The translations under genes and the position numbers were made by a program. A stretch of 64,000 bases of DNA from Candidatus Omnitrophota bacterium (GTDB taxonomy: Bacteria; Omnitrophota; Gorgyraeia; Zapsychrales; JANLHA01). Each line of letters starts with the position of its first letter. The first letter of the stretch is position 1. Shown in pieces: positions 7,636-39,050 of this stretch. Where the stretch lies: the NCBI GenBank assembly GCA_020632555.1, contig JACKFI010000001.1:133152-197151 (forward strand), written 5' to 3'. The notes below the pieces were generated by a model that saw only the letters and a list, made by a program, of their open reading frames with translations, was not told the origin of the DNA and made no database searches.

Positions 7636-7671
7636 CTACTTTCTCTAAAGTTAAAACATCGGTGCATTATA

Positions 7672-8268: not shown

Positions 8269-8290
8269 GTTAGTTAATGATAACTAACAT
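8267..8290. promoter_or_regulatory. Perfect palindrome ATGTTAGTTA-ATGA-TAACTAACAT overlapping the TetR start codon (candidate TetR auto-operator)
   Basis: Read directly from the sequence: 10-bp arms with a 4-bp spacer. The arms begin 1 nt inside the TetR ATG (complement of 8266-8268). Confidence 0.55.
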
Positions 8291-8343
8291 AATGTAACAG
8301 AGTCTGATTCATCTGTCAACCACAACCTTAAAAAAGTCTTGCT

Positions 8344-9021
8344 TCACAGCACATTTTCTTTGCGACCTTTTAGGAATTTCTGCAAAACATAGACTCCTGC
8401 TAATAGGACAACAGCGACACCCACCTTCCAAATATGCTGCGGATTAGCAATAACGCTAATAAAAGAAGAGCCAAAATACACCAAAGCAAATGAGCCGGGC
8501 ATAATGCCAAAGAATGTGGCTAAAAAATAATCGCGAAACTTAACCTTGGTCAAACCTAAGCCAAGATTTTGAATATCCCAAGGCAAATTAGGAATCAACC
8601 GTATCAACAACACCGTTACAAACCCCCGTTTCTCAATAGCCACATCTATATTGCCCATTTTGCCTTTGAGCAATTTTTCAACCGCGTCCCGAGCCAGATA
8701 GCGCGCAATAAAAAATTCTCCCACCGCTGACAAATTCGCCGCAATCAATAAATACATAAAACCCTGCACGCCCCAAATCACACCAGCAGAAGCTGACAAT
8801 AGTGAAGCAGGAAAAAGAATCAACGGGCGAGCGATATAAAAAATGATATAAATCACCGGCCCCCAAATCCCGAAACCTTGGATGATTTCCCTGAATCTCT
8901 CCGGCGTCATCCCTGAAAAATCAATATGCAAAGCCCGCACCAAAATAAACATAGCCACCAGCAGATTCATCCCAATCAATAATTTCAACCACGGATTTTT
9001 CTTCATCAAGTCATCTCGCAA
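8344..9021 (-). CDS. DedA/TVP38/TMEM64-family membrane protein
   Basis: 225 aa, polytopic. Conserved DedA core (ARPLILFP..., IRLIPNLPWDIQN). Confidence 0.8.
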   Translation of the reverse strand: MRDDLMKKNPWLKLLIGMNLLVAMFILVRALHIDFSGMTPERFREIIQGFGIWGPVIYIIFYIARPLILFPASLLSASAGVIWGVQGFMYLLIAANLSAVGEFFIARYLARDAVEKLLKGKMGNIDVAIEKRGFVTVLLIRLIPNLPWDIQNLGLGLTKVKFRDYFLATFFGIMPGSFALVYFGSSFISVIANPQHIWKVGVAVVLLAGVYVLQKFLKGRKENVL

Positions 9022-9030
9022 TTTCTCTAT

Positions 9031-10452: not shown

Positions 10453-10462
10453 AAATCTCTCC

Positions 10463-11209
10463 TCAACGAATATTTTTGTAAAATTTTGCTAATCGCTGTG
10501 TGGACACACCTAAAATAAAACCCCAACTGAGTAAAATATTCATTAAGGTTGTTTTAACAATGCCTCGCTTTTCCCAACGCCGCGGCAAAACAGTGGCTGA
10601 TGAATCGAGAACAATGGTTTTACCTAACTGACGCAACTGTCGAGAGAAAAGCACATCTTCAAACAAAGGCACATTATCAAACCCACCGATTTGCTCAAAA
10701 ATATCTCGGCGGACAAAGATGGCTTGATCTCCATAAAAGATCTTAAATAATTCCGCACGCAAATTCCCAGACGATTCTATCCAACGATAAATCCATTTTC
10801 CAGAGTCAATCTTATGGGTAAAGCAACCGCCAACATAATTTAATAAAACTTGTTTAGCGATAATTCTCAATCCCTCCGCAGCGATGACACAGTCGGCATG
10901 TAAAAAAAGCAAAACATCTCCCTTTGCTGCACAAGCTCCCGCGTTCATTTGCACAGCTCTGCCGCGCGGGGATGTGATAACCTTCACTGAATACTGACCA
11001 ACAATATCCCTAGTCCTATCATTGCTATGACCGTCGACAACAATAACCTCAAGATCCGAAGCATAAGGCAGAGCCTTTAATGTTCTTTCAATCGCGGCCT
11101 CTTCGTTATAAACCGGAATAATAATAGAAATCACTGCAAAGTTCCCTGACAACTGGATCCTGTTCCCGCGGTGCAACCAAAACAATGATTGGCGGTCAAC
11201 ACCTGCCAA
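10463..11209 (-). CDS. Family-2 glycosyltransferase-like 'transferase 2, rSAM/selenodomain-associated' (TIGR04283-like)
   Basis: SIIIPVYNEE and D..D motifs. The ORF as drawn overlaps the upstream radical-SAM gene by 79 nt; the true start is more likely GTG at ~11134 or TTG at ~11152. Confidence 0.7.
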   Translation of the reverse strand: MAGVDRQSLFWLHRGNRIQLSGNFAVISIIIPVYNEEAAIERTLKALPYASDLEVIVVDGHSNDRTRDIVGQYSVKVITSPRGRAVQMNAGACAAKGDVLLFLHADCVIAAEGLRIIAKQVLLNYVGGCFTHKIDSGKWIYRWIESSGNLRAELFKIFYGDQAIFVRRDIFEQIGGFDNVPLFEDVLFSRQLRQLGKTIVLDSSATVLPRRWEKRGIVKTTLMNILLSWGFILGVSTQRLAKFYKNIR

Positions 11210-25325: not shown

Positions 25326-25497
25326 GTGAATTTACGAGCCTGAAAACATCCCTTGATCATTCTTTTCTCATGACTATTAATAGTGGTTTTATTGTCAAAA
25401 GGCGGGATAGAACTATCTTCGATAGGTTCAGGTTATGAAAGGTCTAGCCTGATTCCCAACCTGTTTAATAACAATATGTTGCGTGATGGTCAAAAAA

Positions 25498-25515
25498 ATG
25501 TGCCAGATTTGTGCC
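25498..25515 (-). promoter_or_regulatory. Repeated 18-bp motif copy 1 (minus strand reads GGCACAAATCTGGCACAT; sigma54-like -24/-12 spacing), ~173 bp upstream of the PAS-LuxR gene
   Basis: Identical core at 29995-30012 and 35935-35952. The motif extends to ~37 bp of similarity with copy 2. The GG and GC dinucleotides are 12 nt apart as in TGGCAC-N5-TTGC. Confidence 0.4.
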
Positions 25516-25556
25516 TATCCTAAAGAGCTACTTTTTTTGATGATAAGCCGACCTGA

Positions 25557-26690
25557 TTAAGTGTCCTTCAATGCGTAACTTGTGCTGCGCCCACCCGCGG
25601 TTTCTTTTACTAAAATACCCTTTTCAACAAGATCGAGAATATCGCGCAACGCCGTGTCCTGTGAACACTGGGTGATCTTCGCCCATTTAGAAGAAGTGAG
25701 CTTGCCTTCAAAACCATCAAACAACTTATTGATGATCATCTTCTGCCTCTCGTTAAGGGATTGGGCAGGATGAGATTCCCAAAAACGCGCTTTCTTAAAT
25801 ACACCCGACAAAGTATTTTCAGTTGCATCCAACGCCCGACCCAAACAGCTCAGGAACCACACAAGCCATGGCGTAATATCAATGCCGTCTTTTGTGGCAC
25901 GGTTACTTTTCTGTGTTTTTTCAAGAATATCATAATAGGCATTCCGTTCCTGCCGGATCTGATTCGACATGCTGTAAAAACGCTCCCGGCTGCCGTCGGC
26001 ACGTGCCAGTTGCATATCGGCAATAGCCCGGGCAATTCTTCCGTTACCATCATCAAAAGGATGAAGTGTCACAAACCACAAATGCCCAATACCAGCTTTG
26101 AGCACAGGATCTAAATCCTTTGTGAGCGAAATCGAAGTGTTAAACCATTTCAGAAATTCCTTCATTTCACTTTTAAGACGGTTGGCCTGCGGTGCTTTAT
26201 AATGAACCTTCTCCCGGCCGATAGGACCAGACACAACTCTCATGGGACCATGCTTATCGTCGCGCCAATCAGCCACTGTAATTTTATGCATTCCGCTTCT
26301 ACCGGTTGGGAATAAACTGGCATGCCAGCCAAACATTCGATCCTGCGTAAGGGGCTTGTCAAATTTCTGTGTGGCATCGAGCATCATTTCCACCACTCCA
26401 TCCACATGACGATCAGAAGGCACAAGTCCACCGATGTCCATGCCCAGCCTGCGTGCAATGGATGACCGCACTTTGGCAGGGTCAAGAATCTCACCTTCAA
26501 TTTCACTACTTTTTAAAACATCAAGGGTGAGAGTCTGCAGGATTGCCTCGGAACGCAAAGAAAAACCCAATGCTTCCATTCTTCCAATCAGTCGCCCTTG
26601 GCGATTGCGGACAGTCCCCAAGATAGACGCGACCTTTTCGTGATCCCATGTCAATTTAGGCCAAATGGTTAATTCATGAATGTATTTCAT
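25557..26690 (-). CDS. fic: Fic-family protein (AMPylase/phosphocholine-transferase-type, Fic/DOC)
   Basis: Canonical Fic motif HPFDDGNGRIARA. C-terminal winged-helix-like segment. Confidence 0.88.
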   Translation of the reverse strand: MKYIHELTIWPKLTWDHEKVASILGTVRNRQGRLIGRMEALGFSLRSEAILQTLTLDVLKSSEIEGEILDPAKVRSSIARRLGMDIGGLVPSDRHVDGVVEMMLDATQKFDKPLTQDRMFGWHASLFPTGRSGMHKITVADWRDDKHGPMRVVSGPIGREKVHYKAPQANRLKSEMKEFLKWFNTSISLTKDLDPVLKAGIGHLWFVTLHPFDDGNGRIARAIADMQLARADGSRERFYSMSNQIRQERNAYYDILEKTQKSNRATKDGIDITPWLVWFLSCLGRALDATENTLSGVFKKARFWESHPAQSLNERQKMIINKLFDGFEGKLTSSKWAKITQCSQDTALRDILDLVEKGILVKETAGGRSTSYALKDT

Positions 26691-26720
26691 GGCAAATTCC
26701 TGCGGTGAATAGTCTCATTA

Positions 26721-26765
26721 TTCTACGCATACTATGCGGAGAATATACCATGTTTTCTCCGCATA
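26721..26765. promoter_or_regulatory. Three-half-site operator-like element upstream of fic: TTCTACGCATA-c-TATGCGGAGAA-(11 nt)-TTCTCCGCATA
   Basis: 26733-26743 and 26755-26765 are a perfect 11-bp inverted repeat. 26721-26731 is a 10/11 direct copy of the right arm. Located 31-75 bp upstream of the fic ATG. Confidence 0.5.
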
Positions 26766-26877
26766 CACAAGAGAGATTTAAATCTATATTGCTCCCTACT
26801 AAAAGAAAGCGTCATTGGATATAACGGCTATGTCCAATCATATCCAATTATTGAATCTTTCCATGAGATTTGAAACG

Positions 26878-26895
26878 ATGTGCCGGATTCCTGCC
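26878..26895 (-). promoter_or_regulatory. Degenerate 4th copy of the repeated 18-bp motif (ATGTGCCGGATTCCTGCC, 15/18), ~190 bp upstream of fic, fused to hairpin CCTGCC-TACC-GGCAGG
   Basis: Read directly from the sequence. Same orientation as the other copies. The hairpin core CCTGCCTACCGGCAGGCA recurs at 38564-38581. Confidence 0.3.
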
Positions 26896-26918
26896 TACCG
26901 GCAGGCAGGTGTGCCAAG

Positions 26919-27866
26919 TTATAATCGATCTGAATATTGTGAGATTGTACTTAAAATTTCATCAAACGATATTTGCCCCTGATAATACAATGTTGCAGTT
27001 TTTAGGCACTCCTTCTTAAATTGATCTCTTATCTTCGTATCTTTCAGCAAAAAAGCCTCCTGCTTTGCAATAGGAAACTTTTGATCTGCGACGGGAAATC
27101 TCTTCTTCTTATGCTCGTTGTATTCTGAAGTCCCGATAAACTTCTGAACCGTATCGTTTTGCAAAAGGCAAGCAACATCGTAATAATGCCGGATAAAATT
27201 AGCAGGCATCTTTCCGGACTCTTGCAGTTTCCGAAACTTTGTTGCGATTGTTTGCAATTTCTCAACAAACGTATAACCCAGATGATAGCACAAAACACCA
27301 CCAGCTCTATTATCCTTAACCTTGAGTCCATTCTGCAATGCAAAATCAAGCGCCCAAGAGCTAATATCCATCGGGCTGTTGGGCGTCACCTCATCAAACC
27401 CAACTTCGAGCAATACACCCTCTTTTATGCCGCCGGCAACAGAGAAAGCACTTTTGTAAAAAAGCCGTATTCCACCGCTAAAGAATTTTTCATTATCAAA
27501 TTCCGTGTCACGAATAATTCTTTGTATCCCATCAATATTAATTTTCTTCGCCAACCAGTCATAGTATTTCTTACGGCTTGCACAATGATCTGGTTTTATA
27601 TGGTTTGGACCTGTCTTGACTTCCATGCCGGCAGGCGGTTCGATACGAATATCAATGTCCTCAGAAAATCGATGAATAATGCCATACCCTTTTGAGAGCG
27701 ACGTACCTCCTTTGAGCTCGAAGGTAAATCCCCCTTGTTGCAAACCATATAAAACATGCATGATCCAATAATCTTTTTCAACCAGACTACGCTCTATCTT
27801 TTTTTCATGCTCTACAGCTCGCAAGAGTTCTTTAAATTCAGCGTGGTTATGTAAATAATCAGACAT
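26919..27866 (-). CDS. AbiEii/AbiGii-family nucleotidyltransferase toxin (type IV TA / abortive infection)
   Basis: 315 aa, DUF1814-type nucleotidyltransferase (…GGTSLSKGYGIIHRFSEDIDI…). Overlaps the upstream partner by 8 nt. Confidence 0.8.
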   Translation of the reverse strand: MSDYLHNHAEFKELLRAVEHEKKIERSLVEKDYWIMHVLYGLQQGGFTFELKGGTSLSKGYGIIHRFSEDIDIRIEPPAGMEVKTGPNHIKPDHCASRKKYYDWLAKKINIDGIQRIIRDTEFDNEKFFSGGIRLFYKSAFSVAGGIKEGVLLEVGFDEVTPNSPMDISSWALDFALQNGLKVKDNRAGGVLCYHLGYTFVEKLQTIATKFRKLQESGKMPANFIRHYYDVACLLQNDTVQKFIGTSEYNEHKKKRFPVADQKFPIAKQEAFLLKDTKIRDQFKKECLKTATLYYQGQISFDEILSTISQYSDRL

Positions 27867-28452
27867 GTGCTAAGTTTCCCTCTAACATCCATTGATTAAA
27901 TAAAGTTTTTGTTCTTTCTCCTGCATAAACATTGACCGCGCGCTTCATCTGAGATTCTGGTTCTTTCAGCACTTTTTCCTTAACACTTCGCAAAACACTT
28001 TCCCGATCTTCCGCTAACTCATTTAAATTGTTCAGTAAATCAACCAGTAGAAATTCTTCGGACAATTCTCTGGGGAATTTATGCTTTAATCGAAAATCAA
28101 ACTCCTTTCCACCAAGAACGAATTGACCATGCCGTTTATGATTATAAACAAAGCGCGTATTGTACAACTGCGTAGTTCCCACTCCTAAAGAATTGTAAAG
28201 GTTAGGCGAGGTTAAAAGAAAATCATCGCTTTTTAAGAAGGCCCGTACCAATTTTTCGTCTTCCGGTGGCACAGAGCCAAACGAGGCTTTTGCAGGATAA
28301 TAGTACAATCCCTGTGACATTTTTTGCAAGGTCCCCTCATCAACCAGTTGCTTTAAATGCCGATCAACCGCGGTTGACCATTGCTCCAGATCAACCCTGC
28401 GATAAACCTGTCCCGGTTTTAAATGCCTTTTAAGTTCGCTAAGCGCGTCCAC
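27859..28452 (-). CDS. AbiEi-family antitoxin / transcriptional regulator
   Basis: 197 aa. N-terminal wHTH-like region. Position and size are typical of AbiEi partners of AbiEii. Confidence 0.65.
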   Translation of the reverse strand: MDALSELKRHLKPGQVYRRVDLEQWSTAVDRHLKQLVDEGTLQKMSQGLYYYPAKASFGSVPPEDEKLVRAFLKSDDFLLTSPNLYNSLGVGTTQLYNTRFVYNHKRHGQFVLGGKEFDFRLKHKFPRELSEEFLLVDLLNNLNELAEDRESVLRSVKEKVLKEPESQMKRAVNVYAGERTKTLFNQWMLEGNLAHV

Positions 28453-28568
28453 GTCTTCTGCCTCCTACTTACCTCAAGTATAAAGAGTTTTCTCTAAGAA
28501 TGCAACAATATTAATTTAAAATTCATGCAAATAAAGTGGAAGGACGCACCCAAGATGCTGATATAAAT

Positions 28569-29918
28569 CTAATTGTGATGATTAGCCATCATCCAATCAA
28601 GCACCCCTTTAACACGACGCCAGACAGTAGCCATCTCATGGGCATAATACCGAGCCTCATCCTCTCCGCCCATAGATAAATAATCAGGAATCGCCTTCAA
28701 ACGGAAACCTTTGACAAGATAATTAGGAATAAATTTATTTGTTTTAAAAGCGCGCGCCATCATTTCCCTTGATTGCAACGAATCACCTTCTTTAATAAAC
28801 CACACCAACGCCCTCGTGTAGCACCATGGCGCGGAGCAATCATTCGCATACGGCCCATCCTCCATGAATTGTTCAAGTTCCGCAAATTTCGATCTCTTTG
28901 CCAGATAGCCTGCAAGAACATAGCGCATTCCCTGATTGTCATTCTCATTCAAACACAGCATATCGCGACACACCTCAATCGCTTCGGCATGCTTACCAAG
29001 CTCCCATAAAATTTCCTGAAGTCCAGCCAAAGCGCGCATATACGGCCTTGATTCCAGCAAAGCCCAAAATTGTCCGGCATTCTCTATAAAAAATTTTTGC
29101 CCTAATGCTTCTTTGCCAACCCTAACCCCTTGTAAAAAGTAGGTTGCGGCTTCGTCAAGATACTCTGCTGAATCACCTAAAACAACGTAGGCATCCGTGC
29201 AATTCGGATCAAGATTTAAAGCTTTTTGAGCCAAACCAACACGCTCATCAGAATCAGCCCGCTCCCATGCTTCATAAATCAACTCTTGAGCGATACGTGC
29301 AGGCGACGCATCTGCGAGCTCAGAGGCGGCTTCACCCAATTCTCTTCTTAAGTAAGTCTTCAAATCTTCCTCTTTTGGAATACCCCAAAGAATATTTCTA
29401 AGATCTGGTGGGACCTTGTAACCGTAAAGTGCCGAAAACGTCTCGATCGGAAACCCGTATTTCAGCGCTCCCATGGGCATGCCATTCAATTGAGCGGCTA
29501 CGACGGCCGCAGGATCCTCGTCCTTCTTAGCTTTACTCAGCCACCAGCGGGAATTTAAGACCATCTGGTTCATGGAGGCAAGCACACTGCGATCATTGGC
29601 TTTATCGACGACAATCTCGTCACAGCCTTGCAAAACTTTCTGCATCATTTCACTTGGACAATGCGTATGAAACATAGCACGCGAAAGCCCTTTGTAAAAA
29701 AGTTCACGAAGGTTTTTGAGATCCTTTTTCTTCACTCCCGCGACAAGGAAAGAAAACAGCGTCGATCGATGAGTAAAAAGCAGCTGCTTCTTGTGCTCAT
29801 GATAAAATAAATTCACGAACCATTCTGAAACAGATGGACTATCAGTGTTCAAAGATAAAGACTGAGGCTTGATACCGCTAAACAATAAAAACTTTTGTGT
29901 CCCACGTAAAAGAATCAT
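28569..29918 (-). CDS. Hypothetical protein with C-terminal TPR-like helical repeats
   Basis: 449 aa. No catalytic motif recognised. Preceded at -77 by motif copy 2. Confidence 0.4.
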   Translation of the reverse strand: MILLRGTQKFLLFSGIKPQSLSLNTDSPSVSEWFVNLFYHEHKKQLLFTHRSTLFSFLVAGVKKKDLKNLRELFYKGLSRAMFHTHCPSEMMQKVLQGCDEIVVDKANDRSVLASMNQMVLNSRWWLSKAKKDEDPAAVVAAQLNGMPMGALKYGFPIETFSALYGYKVPPDLRNILWGIPKEEDLKTYLRRELGEAASELADASPARIAQELIYEAWERADSDERVGLAQKALNLDPNCTDAYVVLGDSAEYLDEAATYFLQGVRVGKEALGQKFFIENAGQFWALLESRPYMRALAGLQEILWELGKHAEAIEVCRDMLCLNENDNQGMRYVLAGYLAKRSKFAELEQFMEDGPYANDCSAPWCYTRALVWFIKEGDSLQSREMMARAFKTNKFIPNYLVKGFRLKAIPDYLSMGGEDEARYYAHEMATVWRRVKGVLDWMMANHHN

Positions 29919-29994
29919 TTTTTAATAACCTAACGTTGTTAAATCACCTACAAGCGCCCTCGTTTTGTCATACACTGCGTAATGGTCAATAAAA

Positions 29995-30012
29995 ATGTGC
30001 CAGATTTGTGCC
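29995..30012 (-). promoter_or_regulatory. Repeated 18-bp motif copy 2 (GGCACAAATCTGGCACAT on the minus strand), 77 bp upstream of the 449-aa TPR protein gene
   Basis: 37-bp stretch 29975-30012 matches 25479-25515 with 2 mismatches. Confidence 0.4.
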
Positions 30013-30017
30013 ACATG

Positions 30018-30443
30018 CTATATGAGTTTTTCCATTTTTTCTATAGCAGCATAGTAAATACTCAAAAACTTATCTTTTATTGTAAAAAGCTCGTCCATCA
30101 TTTTTTCAGAATGGGACTTATTCTCATATTCAAAAGGATAAAACCGAATACCCTTTTTATAAAATCCGCCTTCATAATTAATTTGAAAAAAATAATCTCG
30201 GTCAACAAGAGATCGATGCTTACTCAAGTTACAAAAACTCCTCACGTAGCCAAACTCATCTGAGTCAATCCATTCTCCTATAGCATTCTCTAAATCCGGA
30301 GCGATACCTTTCAATTGTTTACTCACTTTATAAATTGTAACTTTGCTTCGGGGCAGCGTAGAAGATAGGATTACCATATTGATTACCTGTGCGCAAATAT
30401 CAGGAGCCAAAGAGAATATTTCCAAACGTGCCATATTCAGCAC
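30018..30443 (-). CDS. Hypothetical protein
   Basis: 141 aa, no recognisable domain. Alternative Met start 3 codons in (MARLEIF). Confidence 0.35.
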   Translation of the reverse strand: MLNMARLEIFSLAPDICAQVINMVILSSTLPRSKVTIYKVSKQLKGIAPDLENAIGEWIDSDEFGYVRSFCNLSKHRSLVDRDYFFQINYEGGFYKKGIRFYPFEYENKSHSEKMMDELFTIKDKFLSIYYAAIEKMEKLI

Positions 30444-30546: not shown

Positions 30547-31560
30547 TCATATTGAAACGTGGCATTGCCCATTGCCAAGATCAACAAAATTAATTTTAAC
30601 ATCCATGAACTTCTCAATAATCTCGGCATTGGTAAGGCTGTGCAGCGTCAGGGCCGTAGTTTTAAATTCTCCACCTTTGGCCAAAGCAAACGGGATCAAA
30701 AGCTGATCAGCCAAATACGTCCCCACCGGAGCATCGATTTGTAAATATTTCTTTACTTGTTCAATGGCTTCATGCGCTACTGCTTCCGCGCTTTTACGCA
30801 ATTCTCCGAAACCCACAAACATTTCCCTGATATTTTCACTATCAACCTCAACCGTAAAAATATTTCCCGGACCTTGAGAATCCATGGCTTGAAAAATCTC
30901 ACTTTGATCATCTTCCAGAGAAAAATGTTTTTTAGCGACCGCGATTTCTCTGACAGCAACATTGCCAGGGATTTGGGCAAAGAGTGATCTTGCCTTTATG
31001 CCTTTAAGTTTGCCGCGCTCTAACAAAAATATGGGTTTTAATTTCTTTATAGGCACAATTTTAGCTTCGATCTTTCCGCCGCCGGCCGGGTAAAAACCGT
31101 GGCGATGCAAAGTCACTTCTAAATCCACACCCATTTGTTTGAGAATCGGCGCAAAAACTATTTTTAAAAAATCCACCGGGGGTGCGAAAGGATTATGCGT
31201 TCCTCCTTCGATCACAATTATGGATGGTGAGTCCGCGATCATCAAAGCCGGTAAAATGGTTTGCAAAACAAGAGTCGCGCTACCCGCCGTCCCAACTGAA
31301 AAATGGTATTCCCCTGCGGTGACTTCTCCCGGATAGAAAGTCAGCTTTTGCGAGCCGATAACATTCCCATCGACCTTTGCATCTCCAATCTTCGTAGCTG
31401 CTTCGACAGCCGTTAAATGCTGGCGTAAAAGCCCCGGCTTACTACGCTTAGCGCGGATATTCTCAATCGTAAACGGCTCGCCCGTTACTAAGGACAACCC
31501 GAGAGCTGTCCTTAGTATTTGGCCCCCGCCTTCACCGATTGAACCGTCGATTTTAATCAT
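30547..31560 (-). CDS. rtcA: RNA 3'-terminal phosphate cyclase
   Basis: 337 aa. N-terminus IDGSIGEGGGQILRTALGLSLVTGEPFTIENIRAKRSKPGL is diagnostic of RtcA. Confidence 0.88.
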   Translation of the reverse strand: MIKIDGSIGEGGGQILRTALGLSLVTGEPFTIENIRAKRSKPGLLRQHLTAVEAATKIGDAKVDGNVIGSQKLTFYPGEVTAGEYHFSVGTAGSATLVLQTILPALMIADSPSIIVIEGGTHNPFAPPVDFLKIVFAPILKQMGVDLEVTLHRHGFYPAGGGKIEAKIVPIKKLKPIFLLERGKLKGIKARSLFAQIPGNVAVREIAVAKKHFSLEDDQSEIFQAMDSQGPGNIFTVEVDSENIREMFVGFGELRKSAEAVAHEAIEQVKKYLQIDAPVGTYLADQLLIPFALAKGGEFKTTALTLHSLTNAEIIEKFMDVKINFVDLGNGQCHVSI

Positions 31561-32306
31561 TTGACCTCTTTGGTTCTCACCGGAACGACTTGACCCGATA
31601 CTCCTAAGACAATCGTACTTCCCGGTGATTGTAAAGCTCGCAATTGCAATAACGCAGGATTGTCTTCCAACACTTTAGAAACATTGGCCAAATTGCGCAA
31701 AGACGCGGTTTCTCCGCGGGCACGTTCCAATGCCGCCAACCCTTCTTTTTGCGCCTCAACAACCTTAGCAAAGATTTTCTTTAATTCACCCGGAAACATA
31801 ACGTCCTTAACGCCGATGAGCGTAATTTTTAAACCGATTTCCTTCGCTTTGGCAACCGTCGCTTCCATCAACTTTTGATTAATCGTTGCTCGCTGTGCCA
31901 AAACCTCATCGATCGCTAAAGAGCCAATGATGTCACGAACTGCCAATTGTACCACCGCGTATAAAGCCTCGGTGTAACTAGCGATCTTATTAACGGCGAT
32001 GTTGGCATCTTCGATCTCATATTGCGCCGTAATGCTGACCTTTAAGGACACATTGTCCGAACTTAAGACTTCCTGCCCCGGGATCGTGATGACTCGAGGA
32101 CGAACATCGATCTTAACGATGATCGTATTCTGAGAAAACTTAAAATAACGACCCGGTTCCAAAATTCCGACAAATTTTCCCTTGCGATATTTTAAACCCT
32201 TCTCATATTCAAGAATAGTGACAAAATATTTTGCACTAAAAACCGCAATGACGACCCAACCGATAAAGCCGAGCACCGCCATGCTTACTAATGTTGATAA
32301 TGTCAT
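31557..32306 (-). CDS. SPFH/band-7 (stomatin/slipin-like) membrane protein inserted between rtcB and rtcA
   Basis: N-terminal TM followed by an SPFH domain and a coiled-coil-like tail (…QKEGLAALERARGETAS…). Overlaps rtcA by 4 nt. Confidence 0.8.
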   Translation of the reverse strand: MTLSTLVSMAVLGFIGWVVIAVFSAKYFVTILEYEKGLKYRKGKFVGILEPGRYFKFSQNTIIVKIDVRPRVITIPGQEVLSSDNVSLKVSITAQYEIEDANIAVNKIASYTEALYAVVQLAVRDIIGSLAIDEVLAQRATINQKLMEATVAKAKEIGLKITLIGVKDVMFPGELKKIFAKVVEAQKEGLAALERARGETASLRNLANVSKVLEDNPALLQLRALQSPGSTIVLGVSGQVVPVRTKEVK

Positions 32307-32602
32307 TTCTTTCTCCTTTTGTTTTTAAAAGTTCTGTCTTAAAAAAATTGTAGAATCGCAGTGGAGGTTGTTGACCTGCAAGACGGCTTTTCTACGAGCA
32401 ACTTTCTTAAGACAGAACGTGGGGATTTGAACCCCTCGGATTACTCCTTGACCAGGGCGAGCGTTTATCTGCAAAATGATATGGCCGATGCCATGTCATC
32501 GCACTGGATTCGCTCGCATATTTTTTTATCCCAATTTTTGCTAAAGGATTTTGCTTTTGGTAAATTGGGATTACGCAAATTTTTTCTATCGAAAATCTGC
32601 CT

Positions 32603-34120
32603 TTAAGCTGCTCCTTTTAAACTTTTATCTTCATCTTTAATAACAAACCGCGCTTTTAACTTTGCCACAGGACTCGCCAGCCCGGCGCTCTCGATTGATC
32701 TCAAAACTTCTTTGAAATCTTTATAAGCCGCAGGGGCTTCATCCAAAGGATATTGCCGGCAATTAGACAGAATGTCATTGTCTTTGAAACTCTGGTCGAC
32801 TTCCTGTTGGACCAAAGTTCTCATCGCCGCCTTCCGTCCCAACGCACGACCAGCGCCGTGATTAACGCTGTAACAACTTTTTTCTGCGCCCGGATCAGCA
32901 ACCATAACAACCGAGCCATCTTTAGGATTACCCGGAAGCAAAATCGGATGTCCGGTATCAGCAAACAAAGTGTCCTTTAATGCAAAGTGTCCCGCCGGGA
33001 AAGCCCGCGTCGCCCCTTTGCGGTGGACCCAGACTTTTTGATTGTCCACCACTTCCTGCCGGGCAATGTTATGGCTGATAAAATAAACCAACTGCCCTTT
33101 TGTTCCAGGAACCACCTCTTGAAACGCTTCTAAAACCAAAGCATTGATTAACAGATGATTGATCGTCGCAAAATTAGCGCCCAAGGCCATGTCATTCAAG
33201 TAGGCATCTGCTTCGGGCGTTCCCAAGGGCGCATACACCAACTCCTTATCCTCGCCCGGCAATGGAATATCCCAAACCGAGAATTTATTTTGCAAGGTCT
33301 TGAATTGATGCTGCGCTAAATGATAACCAAAACCGCGCGAACCGCAATGCGAGAGAAAGGCTACCTTGTTATCTTGAAGCCCAAAGACTTCGGCCACCTT
33401 CTTGGCGCGCTCATCATTCTCGATTTCAACAACTTCGCATTCTCCAAAGTGATTTCCACCACCATAAGAACCCAATTGCGAAATCTTTTTCTCAAAATTA
33501 TCGAACAATCCCGTATCGATCAAAAATTGCAATCTTTGACCTAAGGCATCGGCTGTTCCATCATGCCCGACGTGAAAAGCATCTTCGCAACGCAAAGCCC
33601 AATCCACAGGAATGCCTAATTGCTCGCAGACCGAAGCCGAAGCACCCTGGATAGCGACTTGTTTACCCAGGATTTCATTGACCCGTCTCGCCTTCTTAAC
33701 TGAACGCTGCCCCTGCCCCGCACCCGTCGGGGTTCTTTCAAGGATCGCGTTAATTAAAGCCCGACGGGTGCTTTGATCAATGACGGCATTTGCCGGCAAA
33801 TCCATTTGCAATAAACTCATCGAACACTTAATGTCCACACCAACCGGACCAGGATATATATGAGTAGGTGACACCAGAACACAACCAACCGGTGCGCCGT
33901 ACCCGCAGTGAGCATCTGGGTTCAATACTAAATCGGTAACCCCGGGAGCGCCGCGAGAATTTAAAGCTTGTTGAATACAAAGGTCATCAAAAGTTTTTCT
34001 GATCGCCTCGGTTCCAATCACCGTGATTGGTTTTCCTTCACTATTATGCATAGGAAGAAAACCCGTTGCTTCCCCGGTGGCATGAATTCTTGAAGTTGAT
34101 TCGTTCGTTTGTTCTGACAT
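32603..34120 (-). CDS. rtcB: RNA-splicing ligase RtcB (3'-phosphate/5'-OH RNA ligase)
   Basis: 505 aa. Conserved RtcB metal-binding/GTP motifs (…YGGGNHFGECEV…, …HGAGR…). Confidence 0.88.
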   Translation of the reverse strand: MSEQTNESTSRIHATGEATGFLPMHNSEGKPITVIGTEAIRKTFDDLCIQQALNSRGAPGVTDLVLNPDAHCGYGAPVGCVLVSPTHIYPGPVGVDIKCSMSLLQMDLPANAVIDQSTRRALINAILERTPTGAGQGQRSVKKARRVNEILGKQVAIQGASASVCEQLGIPVDWALRCEDAFHVGHDGTADALGQRLQFLIDTGLFDNFEKKISQLGSYGGGNHFGECEVVEIENDERAKKVAEVFGLQDNKVAFLSHCGSRGFGYHLAQHQFKTLQNKFSVWDIPLPGEDKELVYAPLGTPEADAYLNDMALGANFATINHLLINALVLEAFQEVVPGTKGQLVYFISHNIARQEVVDNQKVWVHRKGATRAFPAGHFALKDTLFADTGHPILLPGNPKDGSVVMVADPGAEKSCYSVNHGAGRALGRKAAMRTLVQQEVDQSFKDNDILSNCRQYPLDEAPAAYKDFKEVLRSIESAGLASPVAKLKARFVIKDEDKSLKGAA

Positions 34121-34243
34121 TTGTTTTTCCCTTATATTGCCCCTTTCCTTTATCGTTGCTTAAAGCATACCCTATCCAAAGCCAAATGTCAAATTTATTT
34201 TTATTTTCTTGTATAAATGTTTATCCTGTGATATATTTATACC

Positions 34244-35842
34244 ATGAATACAAAAATTGCTATTGGGCTACTTGGGACAACCCTCGATCAAGGGAAAGAT
34301 GAAAATCGCTGGAACAAGTGGCGTCCGACCATCTCCCTTTTTCAGCACGAAGACCTCTTGATCCATCGTTTTGACTTGCTATACGAAAAAAAATTTCAAG
34401 ATCTTGCCGAGCAAGTTATTTCTGACATCAAATCCATCTCCCCTGAAACCAGAGTTGTGCCCCACATTATTGAAGTGAAAGACGCGTGGGATTTTGAGAA
34501 TATGTACAGCGTCCTTTTTGACTTTGCCCGCAATTATCCTTTTAATATAGAGAAAGAAGAATATCTCATCCACATCACCACCGGATCGCACGTAGCGCAA
34601 ATTTGTGAATTTCTTTTAACTGAAAGCCGATACTTCCCAGCTAAACTCATCCAGACCTCCCCTTCCAAAACCGAAGGCTTTAAAGGCGAATACCGCATCA
34701 TTGATCTTGACCTTTCTAAGTACGACAACATCGTCAAGCGATTCCGTAAAGAACAAAGAGAAAATTTATCATTTCTTAAATCCGGGATAGCGACTCGCAA
34801 TAGTAAATATAATCGGCTCATTGAACAAATCGAACGCGCGACGATCAACTCTAATGCCCCGCTTCTTCTCACCGGCCCGACCGGTGCCGGAAAATCACAT
34901 CTTGCCCGACAAATTTTTGAACTCAAAAAGATTCACAACCAAATCAAAGGCCAATTTATCGAAGTCAACTGCGCGACTCTGCGCGGAGAAATGTCGGCCT
35001 CCACCCTTTTTGGGCATGTCAAAGGAGCATTTAACTGCGCCATCAAAGACCGAATGGGATTATTACGCGAAGCCAATGAAGGGGTTTTATTTCTCGACGA
35101 GATTGGAGAATTAGGGATCGATGAGCAAGCCATGCTTCTTAAAGCATTGGAAGAACAAAAATTCTTGCCCATCGGCAGCGACGAGGAAGTTGAAAGTAAA
35201 TTTCAGTTAATTGCCGGGACGAATTTAGACCTTGGCATTGAAGTTGATAAAGGCAATTTTCGCACCGACCTCTACTCCCGAATCAATCTTTGGACATTCT
35301 CATTGCCTTCTCTTAAGGACCGTCCTGAAGATATCGATGCCAACATTGAATTTGAATTAGAAAAGTTTTCACAAACACACAATATCAACGCCACCATCAA
35401 TAAAGAAGCCAAAGATGCCTATTTGAAATTTGCGACATCAGAGAAAGCATTATGGAAAGCGAACTTCCGTGACTTGAATGCCTCCATCATTCGCATGACC
35501 ACATTAGCCGACGGCGGGAGAATCAATATTGAACTTGTGCAGGAAGAAATTGACCGGTTAAATAAACTTTGGAAGAGAAGCGAAGATACTCAAGAAGCGG
35601 AGATACTCGAACGTTTACTAACTCAAGAACAACTGCAAAAGCTAGACCGGATTGAAAAAATCCAATTGATTGAAGTTATAAAGATTTGCCGCGAATCACG
35701 CAACCTGTCTGAAGCCGGCCGCATTTTATACAATGCTTCCCGCACACTCAAATCAAGCACCAATGACGCCGATCGACTTAAAAAACTTCTCGCCCGCCAC
35801 GATCTATCCTGGGACCAAATTAAAAACGCTTCCGTACTATGA
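34244..35842 (+). CDS. rtcR: RtcR: CARF-domain sigma54-type enhancer-binding transcriptional regulator
   Basis: 532 aa. N-terminal CARF-like domain (~180 aa), AAA+ sigma54-interaction domain (Walker A GPTGAGKS, Walker B VLFLDEIGEL), C-terminal Fis-type HTH. The GAFTGA loop reads GAFNCA. Confidence 0.85.
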   Translation: MNTKIAIGLLGTTLDQGKDENRWNKWRPTISLFQHEDLLIHRFDLLYEKKFQDLAEQVISDIKSISPETRVVPHIIEVKDAWDFENMYSVLFDFARNYPFNIEKEEYLIHITTGSHVAQICEFLLTESRYFPAKLIQTSPSKTEGFKGEYRIIDLDLSKYDNIVKRFRKEQRENLSFLKSGIATRNSKYNRLIEQIERATINSNAPLLLTGPTGAGKSHLARQIFELKKIHNQIKGQFIEVNCATLRGEMSASTLFGHVKGAFNCAIKDRMGLLREANEGVLFLDEIGELGIDEQAMLLKALEEQKFLPIGSDEEVESKFQLIAGTNLDLGIEVDKGNFRTDLYSRINLWTFSLPSLKDRPEDIDANIEFELEKFSQTHNINATINKEAKDAYLKFATSEKALWKANFRDLNASIIRMTTLADGGRINIELVQEEIDRLNKLWKRSEDTQEAEILERLLTQEQLQKLDRIEKIQLIEVIKICRESRNLSEAGRILYNASRTLKSSTNDADRLKKLLARHDLSWDQIKNASVL

Positions 35843-35934
35843 TCAATCCCTAATTTAATCATCCGTGATAGTTTATTTGAGAATTTATTGTAACCCCAAG
35901 AAGTGGCGTCAGGGGGGATTTTTGGTGCCAAAAC

Positions 35935-35952
35935 ATGTGCCAGATTTGTGCC
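35935..35952 (-). promoter_or_regulatory. Repeated 18-bp motif copy 3 (GGCACAAATCTGGCACAT on the minus strand), between rtcR 3' end and the HEPN gene
   Basis: Core identical to copies 1 and 2. The flank also carries a TGGTGCC variant. No obvious downstream minus-strand gene (would be antisense to rtcR). Confidence 0.3.
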
Positions 35953-35976
35953 ATAGCAAAATGCCATCTTTTTGTA

Positions 35977-36384
35977 TCACTTTCCCATCATCTCTCTGAC
36001 CCATTGATAAACCCGGGTAGTCACCTTGACCATTTCATCAGCATCGGCTCGATTAACACTACGGCATTCATACTGGATCACATTCTTTCGGGCAATGATT
36101 TTGCGTAATTGCTTGGCTTTTTCAGCAGCGCCATCAATCGGCAATTTTGAAACCAGCTCACAGACATCCAAGTGATCTTGGGAAATTGACCGAACACCTT
36201 TTTCATTCACACAAATCGCATCCGCCGAAGAAATCGCACATTGCAATGCCAACGTTGCCGCGGCGTTCCAATTCTCAGCATGAAAAGCAATGAGCATTTG
36301 ATCGTAATTGTCCGATGCCTTTTTCAGATATTCACTAGCGGCAGATTTGCTCTCTTCTCTCACCTTCATTTCACGCGCTGTCAC
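35977..36384 (-). CDS. HEPN-domain protein (toxin of a HEPN/MNT pair)
   Basis: 135 aa, all-helical. R-x5-H-like motif (VRSISQDH). Directly downstream (1-nt gap) of the MNT gene. Confidence 0.6.
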   Translation of the reverse strand: MTAREMKVREESKSAASEYLKKASDNYDQMLIAFHAENWNAAATLALQCAISSADAICVNEKGVRSISQDHLDVCELVSKLPIDGAAEKAKQLRKIIARKNVIQYECRSVNRADADEMVKVTTRVYQWVREMMGK

Positions 36385-36385
36385 A

Positions 36386-37015
36386 TCACACCTCCAAAGG
36401 TTCTTTTCCGTATAAAACTGAATAGGATTTCATTAATGTTGATATCGGCGGAAGATTCTTTTTAAGACGTTCACGAAATTCAGCCGCTGACTTTACATAA
36501 AAATCCAAATGAATACCAAAATATGACTTAAACCGATCCGCAATGCTTGAATTAAAAACCTCCGCAACCTGCTTCGTATGGCTTGCCTTATCGACAACAA
36601 CGGCCACATCAACATCGCTTTTTTTATTTGCTGTACCTTGCTGAACACTTCCATAAAGGATCAAAGAAACAATATCCGTCTTGATCCCGCCTTTCTTTAT
36701 CTCCTCCAAGAGCAGATCGCGGATCTCTCCCTTATAATTACTCTCCGCCTCGAACATCGGGCGAATAATTTTTTGAACGATGCGGTCCTCTTCATTCAAA
36801 GAATAGATATGCTGTTTTCCGATGACTTCGACATTAAGAATATTGTGTGCCTGAAGATTCTTTAATGATTCGTGGGTAGCAGGCACAGAAAAACCAGACA
36901 ATTTAGCAATCTCGCGGCCCGTGGCTCTTAATCCTTTACGGATAGTCAGAACACGCAGGATGGCCACCGCTGACTGCGTCCCAACAATTTCACTGATTTG
37001 GAAAGGAGAATCCAT
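36386..37015 (-). CDS. Nucleotidyltransferase (MNT-type antitoxin) with N-terminal winged-helix DNA-binding domain
   Basis: N-terminal wHTH (…GREIAKLSGFSVPATHESLKNLQAHNIL…). C-terminal Pol-beta NTase motif (LYGSVQQGTANKKSDVDVAVVVD). Confidence 0.7.
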   Translation of the reverse strand: MDSPFQISEIVGTQSAVAILRVLTIRKGLRATGREIAKLSGFSVPATHESLKNLQAHNILNVEVIGKQHIYSLNEEDRIVQKIIRPMFEAESNYKGEIRDLLLEEIKKGGIKTDIVSLILYGSVQQGTANKKSDVDVAVVVDKASHTKQVAEVFNSSIADRFKSYFGIHLDFYVKSAAEFRERLKKNLPPISTLMKSYSVLYGKEPLEV

Positions 37016-37149: not shown

Positions 37150-38545
37150 ATCGGGGAACCATTTAAAAGTAGTAAAAAAAGGCGTATCTTTCTGTTTGGA
37201 AATGTTTAACCGGGTTGACCCATGTCAGCCCAGAACAGAAAGGATACGCCCATGTACCAAACATTTGATACTTTAAAACATCGCGGAGCCGGGTCAAGGA
37301 TTTCATTAATTATACCCAACCGAAAGATTTTTGGATCGATATTAATATGCATCTTAGAAAACTAACCAAAAGTTTTATTGAAGAAACTCTCGACGAAGAA
37401 ATGACCCAATATCAACAACGAGAAAAACATCAGCGGTTAAAGAAAATGATCGATTACCGAAACGGACATTATCAACGCAACCTCGATACGACCATCGGCC
37501 CTCTTGATAATATTGCCGTTCCGCGTTCACGAAGCGGACTATTTAAACCTACGGTTTTTAAGCGTTACCAAAGACGCCAAGAAGCTGTTAACACCGTCAT
37601 CTGCAATGCCTTCCTGCGCGGCATATCCACCCGTGAAGTCGCTGGCGCTTTAAAACCAATCCTTGACACCAACATCTCCGCTTCCGCCGTCTCACGAATA
37701 ACAAAATCTTTAAATGCCCAAGTTAAAGCATTCCATCAACGTCAACTGCTCGACGAATATCAGTTTTTATTCCTAGACGGTATTGCTATCTCAGTCAAAG
37801 GAGCGCTTAAAGCCAAGAAAATTCTTGTCCTAACTGCTTATGGCATTACGATCTTCGGTAAAAAAGAGCTCATCGCCTTTAGAATCTCTAACAGCGAGTC
37901 AAATCAAGCCTGCGAAGGATTTTTAAATGATCTATTTAAACGCGGCCTGCAAGGCAAAAACCTTAAATTGATTATCACCGACGGGTCCAAAGGCTTTATT
38001 AACGCCGTCGACCTCGTTTACCCTCACGTCAAACATCAGCGCTGCTGGGTTCATAAACTTCGTAATTGCACTAAACATCTTAAGAAATGCGATATTGATG
38101 CATTTAAAAATGATGCCCGCAAGATTTACAATGCCTCGACTCATCGAGATGCTGTCGCGGCTTTTAAGAGTTTACGCCAACATTGGGTCAAAGATTATCC
38201 GCAAGTTGTCAAACTCATCGAACAGGATTTAGATAGTCTTTTGGCTTTTTTAGAAATTCCAATCAAGGAACAATACCGCGAATTTATCCGTCGTCGAATT
38301 CGTACAACCAACATCATCGAGCGTTCATTCCGGGAAATCAGACGCCGCACCAGACCCATGGGATGTTTTGCAAATATTGATAGCGTCAGCAGGATTATTT
38401 ATGCGATATTTAATCGCTTAAACACCAAATGGCAGGAGAAACCTTTAACCCAATTTACACAATTTATTTGACATTACCGCAAATTGAAAGGTGCGGTTAA
38501 AACAAGAAAACCCCGTCTCTCCTCGACGGAAAACAGGGTTTTATA
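37150..38545 (+). mobile_element. IS256-family insertion sequence (boundaries approximate; terminal inverted repeats not resolved)
   Basis: The transposase CDS has ~190 bp of upstream and ~70 bp of downstream non-coding flank. A 16-bp-stem long hairpin (GGCGTATCTTTCTGTT…AACAGAAAGGATACGCC) lies at 37196-37257. Confidence 0.4.
37347..38471 (+). CDS. tnp: IS256-family (Mutator-type) transposase
   Basis: 374 aa. Typical IS256 transposase N-terminus (…IEETLDEEMTQYQQREKHQRLKKMIDYRNGHYQRNLDT…) and DDE core. Confidence 0.85.
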   Translation: MHLRKLTKSFIEETLDEEMTQYQQREKHQRLKKMIDYRNGHYQRNLDTTIGPLDNIAVPRSRSGLFKPTVFKRYQRRQEAVNTVICNAFLRGISTREVAGALKPILDTNISASAVSRITKSLNAQVKAFHQRQLLDEYQFLFLDGIAISVKGALKAKKILVLTAYGITIFGKKELIAFRISNSESNQACEGFLNDLFKRGLQGKNLKLIITDGSKGFINAVDLVYPHVKHQRCWVHKLRNCTKHLKKCDIDAFKNDARKIYNASTHRDAVAAFKSLRQHWVKDYPQVVKLIEQDLDSLLAFLEIPIKEQYREFIRRRIRTTNIIERSFREIRRRTRPMGCFANIDSVSRIIYAIFNRLNTKWQEKPLTQFTQFI

Positions 38546-38548
38546 TTG

Positions 38549-38562
38549 GTTGCGGGGACAGG
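38549..38562 (-). repeat. 14-nt direct copy (TTGCGGGGACAGGA) of the tRNA-Met 3' end, att-like
   Basis: Exact match to 38731-38744 (tRNA acceptor/T-stem 3' strand), ~170 bp downstream of the tRNA 3' end. Confidence 0.45.
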
Positions 38563-38695
38563 ACCTGCCTACCGGCAGGCAAGTTTGAATGGTTTCGCGG
38601 CTTCGCTTACGCTCAACCATTTCCTCGCCTAACGGCTCGGTCACCTGCGCTCGCTTTCGCTCGCTGCACGTCCATTCACCCATCCCACTAATAAA

Positions 38696-38725
38696 TTAAG
38701 AAGGCCCCAATTGGGGCCTTCTTAA
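38696..38725. terminator. Perfect 13-bp-arm palindromic hairpin TTAAGAAGGCCCC-AATT-GGGGCCTTCTTAA immediately 3' of tRNA-Met
   Basis: Read directly from the sequence. GC-rich stem flanked by A/T runs on both sides (bidirectional terminator-like). Confidence 0.55.
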
Positions 38726-38730
38726 TTTAA

Positions 38731-38804
<74 letters not shown>

Positions 38805-38834
38805 GCTATTCTTAGTAATAATATCTTGAGGTAG

Positions 38835-39050
38835 CCGCGGCACTTCCTCGGGTATTAAGCGTCTGTCGGCCTCGCCACGGTGGGCTCGGCACTCCTTCGC
38901 ACTTTACGTGCTCAGTCGCCCGCTTTGGTACTAAATACATCTTAATATAACGGCGGCACTTCCTCGGGCATTAAGCGTCTGTCGGCCTCGCCACGGTGGG
39001 CTCGGCACTCCTTCGCACTTTACGTGCTCAGTCGCCCGCTTTGGTACTAA
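38835..39050. repeat. 2 x 100-bp near-identical GC-rich tandem repeat (16-bp spacer) between tRNA-Met and the ftsB-eno operon
   Basis: 38835-38934 and 38951-39050 differ at 2 positions. Unit: CGGCACTTCCTCGGG(T/C)ATTAAGCGTCTGTCGGCCTCGCCACGGTGGGCTCGGCACTCCTTCGCACTTTACGTGCTCAGTCGCCCGCTTTGGTACTAA. Confidence 0.6.

Follow-up and report, generated by a model that had tools for sequence, protein, structure and literature searches.

An rtc locus with an RNA and a stomatin-type gene between rtcB and rtcA

The 64 000-nucleotide (nt) stretch analysed here (hereafter the window; contig JACKFI010000001.1 of a Candidatus Omnitrophota bacterium, assembly GCA_020632555.1, positions 133 152 to 197 151) carries an rtc RNA repair locus of unusual composition. 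Its rtcR gene (34244–35842, plus strand) faces rtcB (32603–34120) across a short intergenic region (34121–34243), and rtcB is followed by a 296-nt gap (32307–32602), a gene for a 249-residue stomatin-type SPFH/Band-7 protein or 'slipin' (31557–32306) and rtcA (30547–31560), all on the minus strand. The open reading frame (ORF) map matches that of an earlier reading made from the sequence alone (the original prediction), and Pfam agrees with all four gene identities. That reading also described a 297-bp non-coding gap, taken as a place for possible transcript read-through; the gap is real, at 296 nt, but it is not non-coding, since a conserved structured RNA lies inside it. The locus is an RtcR-RtcB-RtcA RNA repair operon with a two-part accessory module, RNA plus SPFH gene, between rtcB and rtcA.

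The three rtc products are readily recognized. RtcA, the RNA 3′-terminal phosphate cyclase, matches Pfam RTC and RTC_insert (E = 2.7e-81, RTC 272.4 bits) and exceeds the NCBIfam equivalog cut-off (439.5 > 352). RtcB, the RNA 3′-phosphate/2′,3′-cyclic phosphate–5′-OH ligase, is of the long 505-residue type and matches Pfam RtcB (E = 4.4e-102, 342.9 bits); it scores below the NCBIfam equivalog cut-offs and by tblastn shares only ∼27% identity with the RtcB type of Anaeromyxobacter and of two Verrucomicrobiota loci (L029, L030) of the comparative set described below. RtcR has a CARF-like RtcR domain (PF06956, E = 2.3e-80), a sigma54-type AAA+ domain (Sigma54_activat, PF00158, E = 3.7e-47) and a C-terminal region, and is labelled RtcR--CARF_AAA_HTH by PADLOC. 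Earlier regarded as a divergent RtcR, it is a canonical member of the family (755 bits against a cut-off of 650 for NCBIfam RNA_repair_RtcR, NF038308), apart from an altered GAFTGA loop. As in other Rtc operons, rtcB and rtcA share a strand and an operon, with rtcR transcribed away from them. The SPFH stop and rtcA start are joined by the expected 4-nt ATGA overlap (AAATGATT).

The inserted gene belongs to the stomatin-type SPFH/Band-7 family by sequence and by predicted fold, as had been proposed. Its product matches Pfam Band_7 (PF01145, E = 2.4e-30) and solved stomatin chains (phmmer, E = 1.7e-26), and shares 100% identity with an NCBI 'slipin family protein' from a Candidatus Omnitrophica metagenome-assembled genome (MAG). 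An AlphaFold2 model (pLDDT 77) places a transmembrane (TM) helix at residues 4–26, followed by an SPFH domain and a long C-terminal helix, and Foldseek aligned this model with the human stomatin cage (E = 5.6e-20). The modelled architecture is that of a stomatin cage protein with an N-terminal TM anchor, and a Lys-rich stretch after the TM helix predicts that the SPFH domain is cytoplasmic. SPFH proteins are ubiquitous, and their functions in bacteria are poorly defined. NfeD-linked stomatin/slipin operons, HflK/C and QmcA-YbbJ cages have the same succession of N-terminal TM helix, SPFH domain and long C-terminal helix, and stomatin, QmcA and HflK are the closest solved relatives of the window protein. 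However, NfeD-type slipin operons pair the slipin with NfeD, whereas the conserved neighbour of the window's SPFH family is an RNA gene: in the window the neighbours are rtcB and rtcA, and the downstream neighbours tested in related loci included no NfeD. NfeD-linked plasmid slipins are ∼30% identical to the window protein, and a plasmid collection yielded distant slipins only (≤ 36% identity).

A structured RNA in the gap

The gap in front of the SPFH gene encodes a conserved RNA of ∼190 nt that is under structural selection. In the sense of the operon, the full 296 nt of the gap have a folding z-score of −6.6 against shuffled sequences, and a covariance model (R1; 197 positions, 53 pairs) places the RNA at 32328–32519 on the minus strand with 118 bits (E = 2.6e-30). 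The RNA is large and has four domains, which in the direction of the operon are a 5′ long hairpin (32517–32457, with P1 GCGAGCG/CGCTCGC and an apical hairpin at 32494–32481), a short variable hairpin (32447–32438), a tRNA-type T-arm (32435–32421, GGGGTTCAAATCCCC; also given as a GGGUUCAAAUCCCC T-arm) and a long 3′ hairpin (32418–32331), which in most sequences bears a small side hairpin. The apex of the 3′ hairpin (32382–32361, CTTGCAGGT-loop-ACCTCCAC in the window, consensus yUGYRGGU-loop-ACCYCCRC) is the most conserved part of the RNA, and the RNA has loops that are invariant in sequence across phyla.

Over 34 sequences and 53 pairs, 90.2% of cells form a standard pair, against 41.5–51.9% when partners are slid by one to three columns; 47 of the 53 pairs have changed on both sides (25–31 in the slid controls), the covariation score is 0.597 (at most 0.181 in the controls), and none of 500 shuffles reached the observed pairing or covariation values; these counts come from a model-fitted alignment, which is biased toward structure and to that extent weighs against the reading, and RNAalifold on a MAFFT alignment, an independent check, gave compensatory changes in 33 of 40 pairs. 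The T-arm, with its GGUUCRAnUCC loop closed by G-C pairs, follows the strict pattern in 24/34 sequences and occurs as variants in most others, and in most of the 33 related loci introduced below the SPFH match is preceded, at a distance of 127–280 nt, by a GGTTCRAnTCC motif. The T-arm is missing, with the 3′ hairpin kept, from L014, L023 and one of two tandem copies of the RNA that precede a single SPFH gene in L008 (3954–4140 and 4395–4595; the upstream copy has no T-arm and keeps the apex).

An ordinary tRNA or a YrlA RNA was rejected as the identity of the gap RNA. ARAGORN made no call in the window's gap or in the DNA preceding the SPFH gene of the 33 loci, the Rfam tRNA model had no match at E ≤ 1 in the window or at E ≤ 10 in six loci, and the Rfam YrlA model (RF02553) did not match the window-type RNA. 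Neither ARAGORN nor any family in Rfam 15 detects it or its 80-odd relatives.

The RNA and the SPFH gene are inseparable

For comparison we fetched 33 loci (designated by L numbers) whose SPFH genes are related to that of the window (41–89% identity) and which come from Omnitrophota, Planctomycetota, Chloroflexota, Nitrospirota, Thermodesulfobacteriota, Myxococcota, Melainabacteria, Gemmatimonadota, Patescibacteria, Verrucomicrobiota and Bacteroidota. R1 matched directly upstream of the SPFH gene in every one of the 32 loci with upstream DNA (48–180 bits), including loci without the strict T-loop pattern; L021, whose sequence ends 62 nt upstream of the gene, was left out of this count. The same held for four of four further contigs obtained by exact-protein look-ups, bringing the total to 36/36. 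A scan that started from the RNA instead, with a nucleotide pattern of T-loop plus apex motif run over metagenome contigs, returned matches of which R1 confirmed 54 among the 80 listed, and a same-strand SPFH gene follows the RNA by 2–183 nt in all 50 R1 matches with at least 250 nt of downstream sequence. Because the linkage holds in SPFH-first and RNA-first searches alike, the RNA and its SPFH gene are inseparable whichever of them one starts from, in at least 10 bacterial phyla. Most relatives carry the pair without Rtc neighbours; thus the constant partner of the window-type SPFH protein is the RNA, not Rtc.

Two further candidates were rejected. None of the 80 pattern matches listed from viral contigs was an R1 match, which argues against phage carriage of the RNA, and an apparent second RNA copy in L002 (25 bits, 7568–7718) is a fragment of a tRNA 3′ end with a terminator hairpin behind it.

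Repeated recruitment into RNA repair operons

Although the module can do without Rtc, it recurs beside RNA repair genes. Judged by tblastn and Pfam, rtcR/rtcB/rtcA or RtcR-Hen1-Pnkp genes adjoin the related SPFH gene in 11 of the 33 loci, from at least four phyla, and all eleven lie within 5 kb of rtcR/rtcB/rtcA or Pnkp-Hen1. The juxtaposition that the original prediction had noted in a single locus is therefore recurrent, and it takes four forms: rtcR<>rtcB-RNA-SPFH-rtcA (the window, L001, L002), rtcR<>rtcB-rtcA-RNA-SPFH (Anaeromyxobacter L009, L024), rtcR<>RNA-SPFH-rtcB(-rtcA) (L026, L029, L030, L032, and partially in L027 and L028) and rtcR<>RNA-SPFH-Hen1-ankyrin-Pnkp (L025). Together these arrangements span Omnitrophota, Myxococcota, Verrucomicrobiota and Bacteroidota. 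The L025 locus (5825–10698) is an RtcR-controlled Pnkp/Hen1 repair operon with a divergent rtcR and no RtcB in the available sequence. In L027, a Pedosphaera MAG, eight tRNA genes (Thr, Leu x3, Ile, Lys, Gln x2; positions 1–2011) crowd the 2 kb upstream of RNA-SPFH-rtcB.

Elsewhere the module keeps other company: polyketide synthase (PKS), HypF, a Ser/Thr kinase, pst/PhoU, CtaA/B and PIN-Phd genes are neighbours of the stand-alone units. These calls rest on tblastn and Pfam, as ORF calling is unreliable in high-GC loci; many of the contigs with RNA and SPFH gene are short, and the metagenome pattern left out the long-apex RNA type of the RtcR-linked Verrucomicrobiota loci. Thus the question raised with the original prediction, whether the SPFH gene forms an independent unit in relatives, is half answered in the affirmative, as most RNA-SPFH units stand alone with a sigma70-like promoter. 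We conclude that the module is autonomous and has been recruited repeatedly into RtcR regulons.

Such autonomy could also mean that a self-contained RNA-SPFH cassette simply landed between rtcB and rtcA and has no functional tie to RNA repair. The cassette is autonomous in most genomes, and the window locus lies in a variable region with an insertion sequence (IS) element, a tRNA gene and repeats. We consider this fortuitous insertion very improbable, however: we estimate that well under one of the 33 loci would fall within 5 kb of repair genes by chance, against the 11 observed; the four gene orders arose independently in four phyla; in Proteobacteria the equivalent position is taken by a second SPFH lineage, one that has cloverleaf RNAs; and in the window SPFH and rtcA are translationally coupled.

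Transcription of the module and the RtcR loop

Promoter-like boxes sit just before the start of the RNA. Upstream sequence is available for 51 metagenome loci, and over these TAnnnT hexamers occur 43 times at 1–6 nt before the R1 model start and 0–2 times at any other offset. TATAAT-like boxes precede the RNA likewise in stand-alone genome loci, and RtcR-linked loci of Verrucomicrobiota and Bacteroidota have a TGGCACG-N4-yTGc sigma54-type site 15–30 nt in front of it. The transcript therefore begins with the RNA and runs on into the SPFH gene, in stand-alone and sigma54-linked loci alike, and these motifs indicate that RNA and SPFH gene usually form a transcription unit of their own with a putative sigma70-like promoter.

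The window differs, in that its RNA follows rtcB. Neither a sigma70-type nor a sigma54-type promoter was found directly before the RNA in the window, L001 or L002. Behind the rtcB stop lies a spacer (32520–32602, minus strand) predicted to fold into two hairpins, the second being ATCCCAATTT...AAATTGGGAT and followed by an A-run; a terminator scan of this spacer found no intrinsic terminator on the minus strand. It is lineage-specific, with an equivalent in L001 and none in L002. Because the RNA has no promoter of its own and no terminator follows rtcB, the window RNA is probably co-transcribed with rtcB and may or may not be processed afterwards. Before rtcB itself, a TTGACA-17-TATGCT sigma70-like site (34192–34164, minus strand) is common to the window, L001 and L002. 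A sigma54 promoter for the window rtcB was rejected, as the rtcR–rtcB intergenic region (34121–34243) holds no good GG-N10-GC site and the nearest candidate is GG-N9-GC. The sigma54-contact loop of RtcR (residues ∼256–267) has changed as well, to GAFNCA in the window and GAFNGA in L001 and L002, whereas all eight other RtcR proteins checked combine GAFTGA or GSFTGA with a TGGCACG-type promoter. The window thus has neither the sigma54 promoter nor the GAFTGA loop of a canonical Rtc system, and RtcR in its lineage may have moved to sigma54-independent activation.

A sigma54-like repeat with GG-N10-GC spacing does occur, downstream of the operon (29998–30013, minus strand, TGGCACAAATCTGGCA). It belongs to a longer repeat, AAAAATGTGCCAGATTTGTGCCA, present in three copies in the window (25493–25536, a variant; 29990–30033; 35930–35973), whose minus strand reads TGGCACAAATCTGGCA, which can also be seen as a tandem TGGCACA with an 11-nt period. 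The copy at 35938–35953 on the minus strand lies just past the 3′ end of rtcR and would fire antisense through rtcR toward rtcB. The second and third copies bracket the whole rtc locus together with a 141-residue ORF (30018–30443) directly 3′ of rtcA, which has no Pfam, NCBIfam or PADLOC match; equivalent repeat copies flank the locus in L001 and L002, which carry a different ORF, of 258 residues, in place of the 141-residue one.

Does the RNA act only in cis?

The arrangement invites a simple explanation, namely that the RNA serves the SPFH mRNA as a 5′ leader acting in cis (an autoregulatory site, a tRNA-related sensor or a 5′ stabilizer) and the SPFH protein an ordinary membrane scaffold. 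The RNA always precedes the SPFH gene on its strand, at a short distance from the start codon, the promoters are placed so that it starts the transcript, and a U-run follows the long 3′ hairpin in L004, L013 and the window. Since the position of the RNA is invariant, we regard this as a serious rival, although on balance an unlikely one. The U-run is missing from many loci (L005, L009 and L025 among them), and this inconsistency led us to reject the conserved 3′ hairpin as an intrinsic terminator or attenuator. The Shine-Dalgarno (SD) sequence is unpaired and lies outside the conserved fold, the conserved CCUCC being paired within its own hairpin; in 14 of 34 sequences it has become CCCCC with a compensating G opposite, which would weaken pairing with GGAGG. 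The size of the RNA, its four domains, its invariant loops, its tandem duplication in L008 and its location inside the operon in the window and in Anaeromyxobacter likewise speak against a plain leader. Regulation through a bound protein is a possibility.

The same compensated change (CCCCC with an A-to-G substitution opposite, 14/34) disposes of the ACCUCC apex as an anti-SD or as a mimic of the 16S rRNA 3′ end (CUGCGGUUGGAUCACCUCC), and it indicates that intra-hairpin pairing is what is conserved at the apex. A pseudoknot between apex and SD was rejected because the two lie too far apart. Altogether, the lack of a conserved terminator or SD platform, the covariation at the apex, the tandem copies in L008 and the mid-operon position in two arrangements favour a ribonucleoprotein over a plain leader.

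Relation to known RNA–protein modules

The idea of an SPFH protein in an rtc locus is not new. The 2012 genome paper on Pelobacter carbinolicus described the order rtcR<>'mutant tRNA'-stomatin-rtcA-rtcB (PMC3543383), an SPFH/Band-7 protein with a cognate tRNA-like RNA was proposed as an RNA repair cofactor by Burroughs and Aravind (2016; as cited in a 2018 preprint, bioRxiv 10.1101/312249), and a 2026 paper places PaFlo8 of P. aeruginosa within its rtc locus (PMC13086221). We found no experimental test of this 2012–2016 proposal of a tRNA-like RNA in RtcB repair in the literature searched. The main finding here is an RNA that had gone unannotated and that is strictly coupled to the SPFH gene. 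Thus the original prediction that the SPFH protein forms a membrane branch of the RNA damage response stands as to a recurrent link with Rtc (11/33) but not as to novelty, given the 2012 and 2016 precedents, and the constant partner is the RNA.

The window RNA is a structurally different form of this known module of tRNA-like RNA and SPFH protein. In loci of the Band-7-associated tRNA-like RNA (b7a-tRNA), as in the window, an RNA with a GGGUUCRAnUCCC T-arm lies upstream of an SPFH gene in or beside an RtcR-controlled RtcB operon, and related loci of our set also share with the b7a-tRNA type a sigma54 promoter directly before the RNA. The window RNA has the T-arm, the same-strand position directly upstream of the Band-7 gene and the RtcB operon, but no cloverleaf detectable as a tRNA.

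The proteobacterial form, which we reached through the plasmid-collection search in chromid records of Burkholderia multivorans and Photobacterium, has the order rtcR<>sigma54 promoter, one or two cloverleaf tRNA-like genes, ∼250 nt, SPFH, rtcB. Its RNAs, like the published ones, are true cloverleaves; those of Burkholderia and Photobacterium are called by ARAGORN and score 44–54 bits with the Rfam tRNA model, unlike the ∼190-nt window RNA, which is without D-arm or anticodon arm; R1 matches only their T-arms, and their rtc-linked SPFH proteins are only 32–36% identical to that of the window. In both loci a TGGCAC sigma54-type site comes first, and after it the Burkholderia locus (L243:4243–4342) has a T-arm hairpin and one cloverleaf, the Photobacterium locus (L244:4185–4326) two abutting cloverleaves; the Photobacterium pair also gives a weak match to the Rfam YrlA model (27 bits, below the gathering score of 69).

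A second parallel is the Salmonella Ro60 (Rsr)–YrlA/YrlB system (rsr-yrlBA-rtcBA; PMC4201824, PMC7790460), in which a non-coding RNA with a T-arm likewise sits beside its presumed protein partner in an RtcR-regulated operon. The order of variable hairpin, T-arm and closed 'acceptor-like' hairpin in the window RNA resembles the V-T-AS order of YrlA, and tandem RNA copies occur in both families (L008 here, yrlB-yrlA in Salmonella). However, the window RNA lacks the GNCGAA Ro-binding motif, the D stem-loop and the 5′/3′ closing stem; with YrlA and the bacterial Y RNAs it shares only the T stem-loop and the V-T-hairpin order. The proteins differ too, Ro60 being a soluble HEAT-repeat ring and the window partner a membrane SPFH protein, and no TROVE/Ro60 gene was found among 24 ORFs tested at 19.5–48.0 kb of the window. 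More distantly, the eukaryotic vault (major vault protein (MVP) cage, vault RNA and the TROVE protein TEP1) combines an SPFH-like cage with a small structured RNA, as the bacterial particle proposed below would, and the human vault cage is among the distant Foldseek matches of our model (rank 49). This is a resemblance only: evidence of homology is limited to the SPFH-like shoulder fold, size and topology differ, and RNA binding on the bacterial side is only proposed.

Genomic setting

The rtc locus lies in a variable stretch of ∼13 kb, with housekeeping genes beyond (enolase, FtsH-like). On one side (25557–29918) are SoFic/Fic-DOC, a complete AbiEi-AbiEii pair and a DUF6933/candidate PDC-S63 gene; on the other are a HEPN plus MNT-type nucleotidyltransferase pair (35977–37015), then an IS256-family transposase and tRNA-Met. 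The defence island claimed earlier is thus partly borne out: AbiEi/AbiEii, SoFic and the PDC-S63 candidate flank one side, and the HEPN-MNT pair the other, together with the transposase and tRNA-Met. Several of the neighbours are toxins from families reported to act on RNA or tRNA, which fits an RNA repair locus.

The IS256/Mutator-family transposase adjoins tRNA-Met (features at 37347–38471, 38541–38563, 38722–38804 and 38813–39044). At a distance of 181 nt, 23 nt of the tRNA-Met 3′ end are present a second time, and then comes a tandem repeat of 116 nt whose two copies are 91% identical. These features suggest that the island integrated at tRNA-Met. In L002, a tRNA 3′ fragment (7630–7680) lies just past the rtc locus.

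Such neighbours raise another possibility, that the RNA is a sentinel or decoy whose T-arm and apex attract ribotoxins (with HEPN and AbiEii next door), the resulting 2′,3′-cyclic phosphate products feeding the RtcR CARF domain, or the toxin being soaked up, while the SPFH protein holds the decoy at the membrane. RtcR is reported to be activated by tRNA fragments ending in 2′,3′-cyclic phosphate (PMC7790460). The T-arm is present, HEPN, AbiEii and Fic toxins flank the window locus, and in several phyla the RNA stands behind RtcR-type sigma54 promoters. The scheme is nevertheless entirely inferential, most RNA-SPFH units have no RtcR, L014, L023 and one L008 copy keep the 3′ hairpin without a T-arm, and the RNA contains no anticodon-loop mimic. 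We judge it improbable; like fortuitous insertion, it is less likely than a cis-acting leader.

A membrane-tethered RNA–protein particle?

Our own proposal, which we advance tentatively and with slightly less than even confidence, is that the SPFH protein and its RNA form a membrane-tethered particle that has been recruited as a cofactor of RNA repair, by analogy with Ro60–Y RNA. The SPFH protein would oligomerize on the cytoplasmic face of the membrane, like the solved stomatin and HflK/C cages, and the oligomer would bind its cognate RNA to give a membrane-tethered ribonucleoprotein. In RtcR-linked loci, ribotoxin damage would induce the particle along with the ligase and the cyclase, and the particle might then serve as a scaffold or cofactor for RtcB/RtcA or Pnkp/Hen1, presenting or holding tRNA-like substrates. 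This role is modelled on that proposed for Ro60–Y RNA of the rsr-yrlBA-rtcBA operon in Salmonella.

Several observations weigh against this proposal. SPFH proteins are not known to bind RNA, and no member of the family is known to work with one; binding of the RNA by the window protein is suggested by analogy. As a cis leader would, the RNA invariably precedes the gene on its strand, a few to some tens of nt from the start codon. Control of the window operon by RtcR is suggested by synteny, and the window has no sigma54 promoter and an RtcR with GAFNCA. Finally, the available sequence of 22 of the 33 genome loci contains no rtc gene, nor was one found in any of the 54 metagenome loci, few of which have long flanks; as most RNA-SPFH units are without RNA repair neighbours, the primary role of the module may lie outside RNA repair.

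A wider reading would accommodate this last point, and we regard it as possible but rather doubtful: the ∼190-nt RNA would be a new and widespread family, the dedicated partner of one stomatin subfamily in an SPFH-cage ribonucleoprotein with a basal role independent of Rtc, repeatedly recruited by repair operons, with RtcR in the window's lineage perhaps sigma54-independent.

The question has thereby shifted, from what the SPFH protein does for Rtc to what the RNA–protein pair does, and why repair operons borrow it. A covariation-backed RNA model, defined 5′ ends and a linkage that holds in both directions make the hypothesis of an SPFH–RNA particle directly testable, and cultured carriers are at hand, namely Anaeromyxobacter (A. 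oryzisoli SG63, for example) for the window-type RNA and Burkholderia, Photobacterium and Pseudomonas for the cloverleaf form. If the hypothesis is true, the SPFH-cage ribonucleoprotein would be a membrane counterpart of Ro60–Y RNA, and loosely vault-like.

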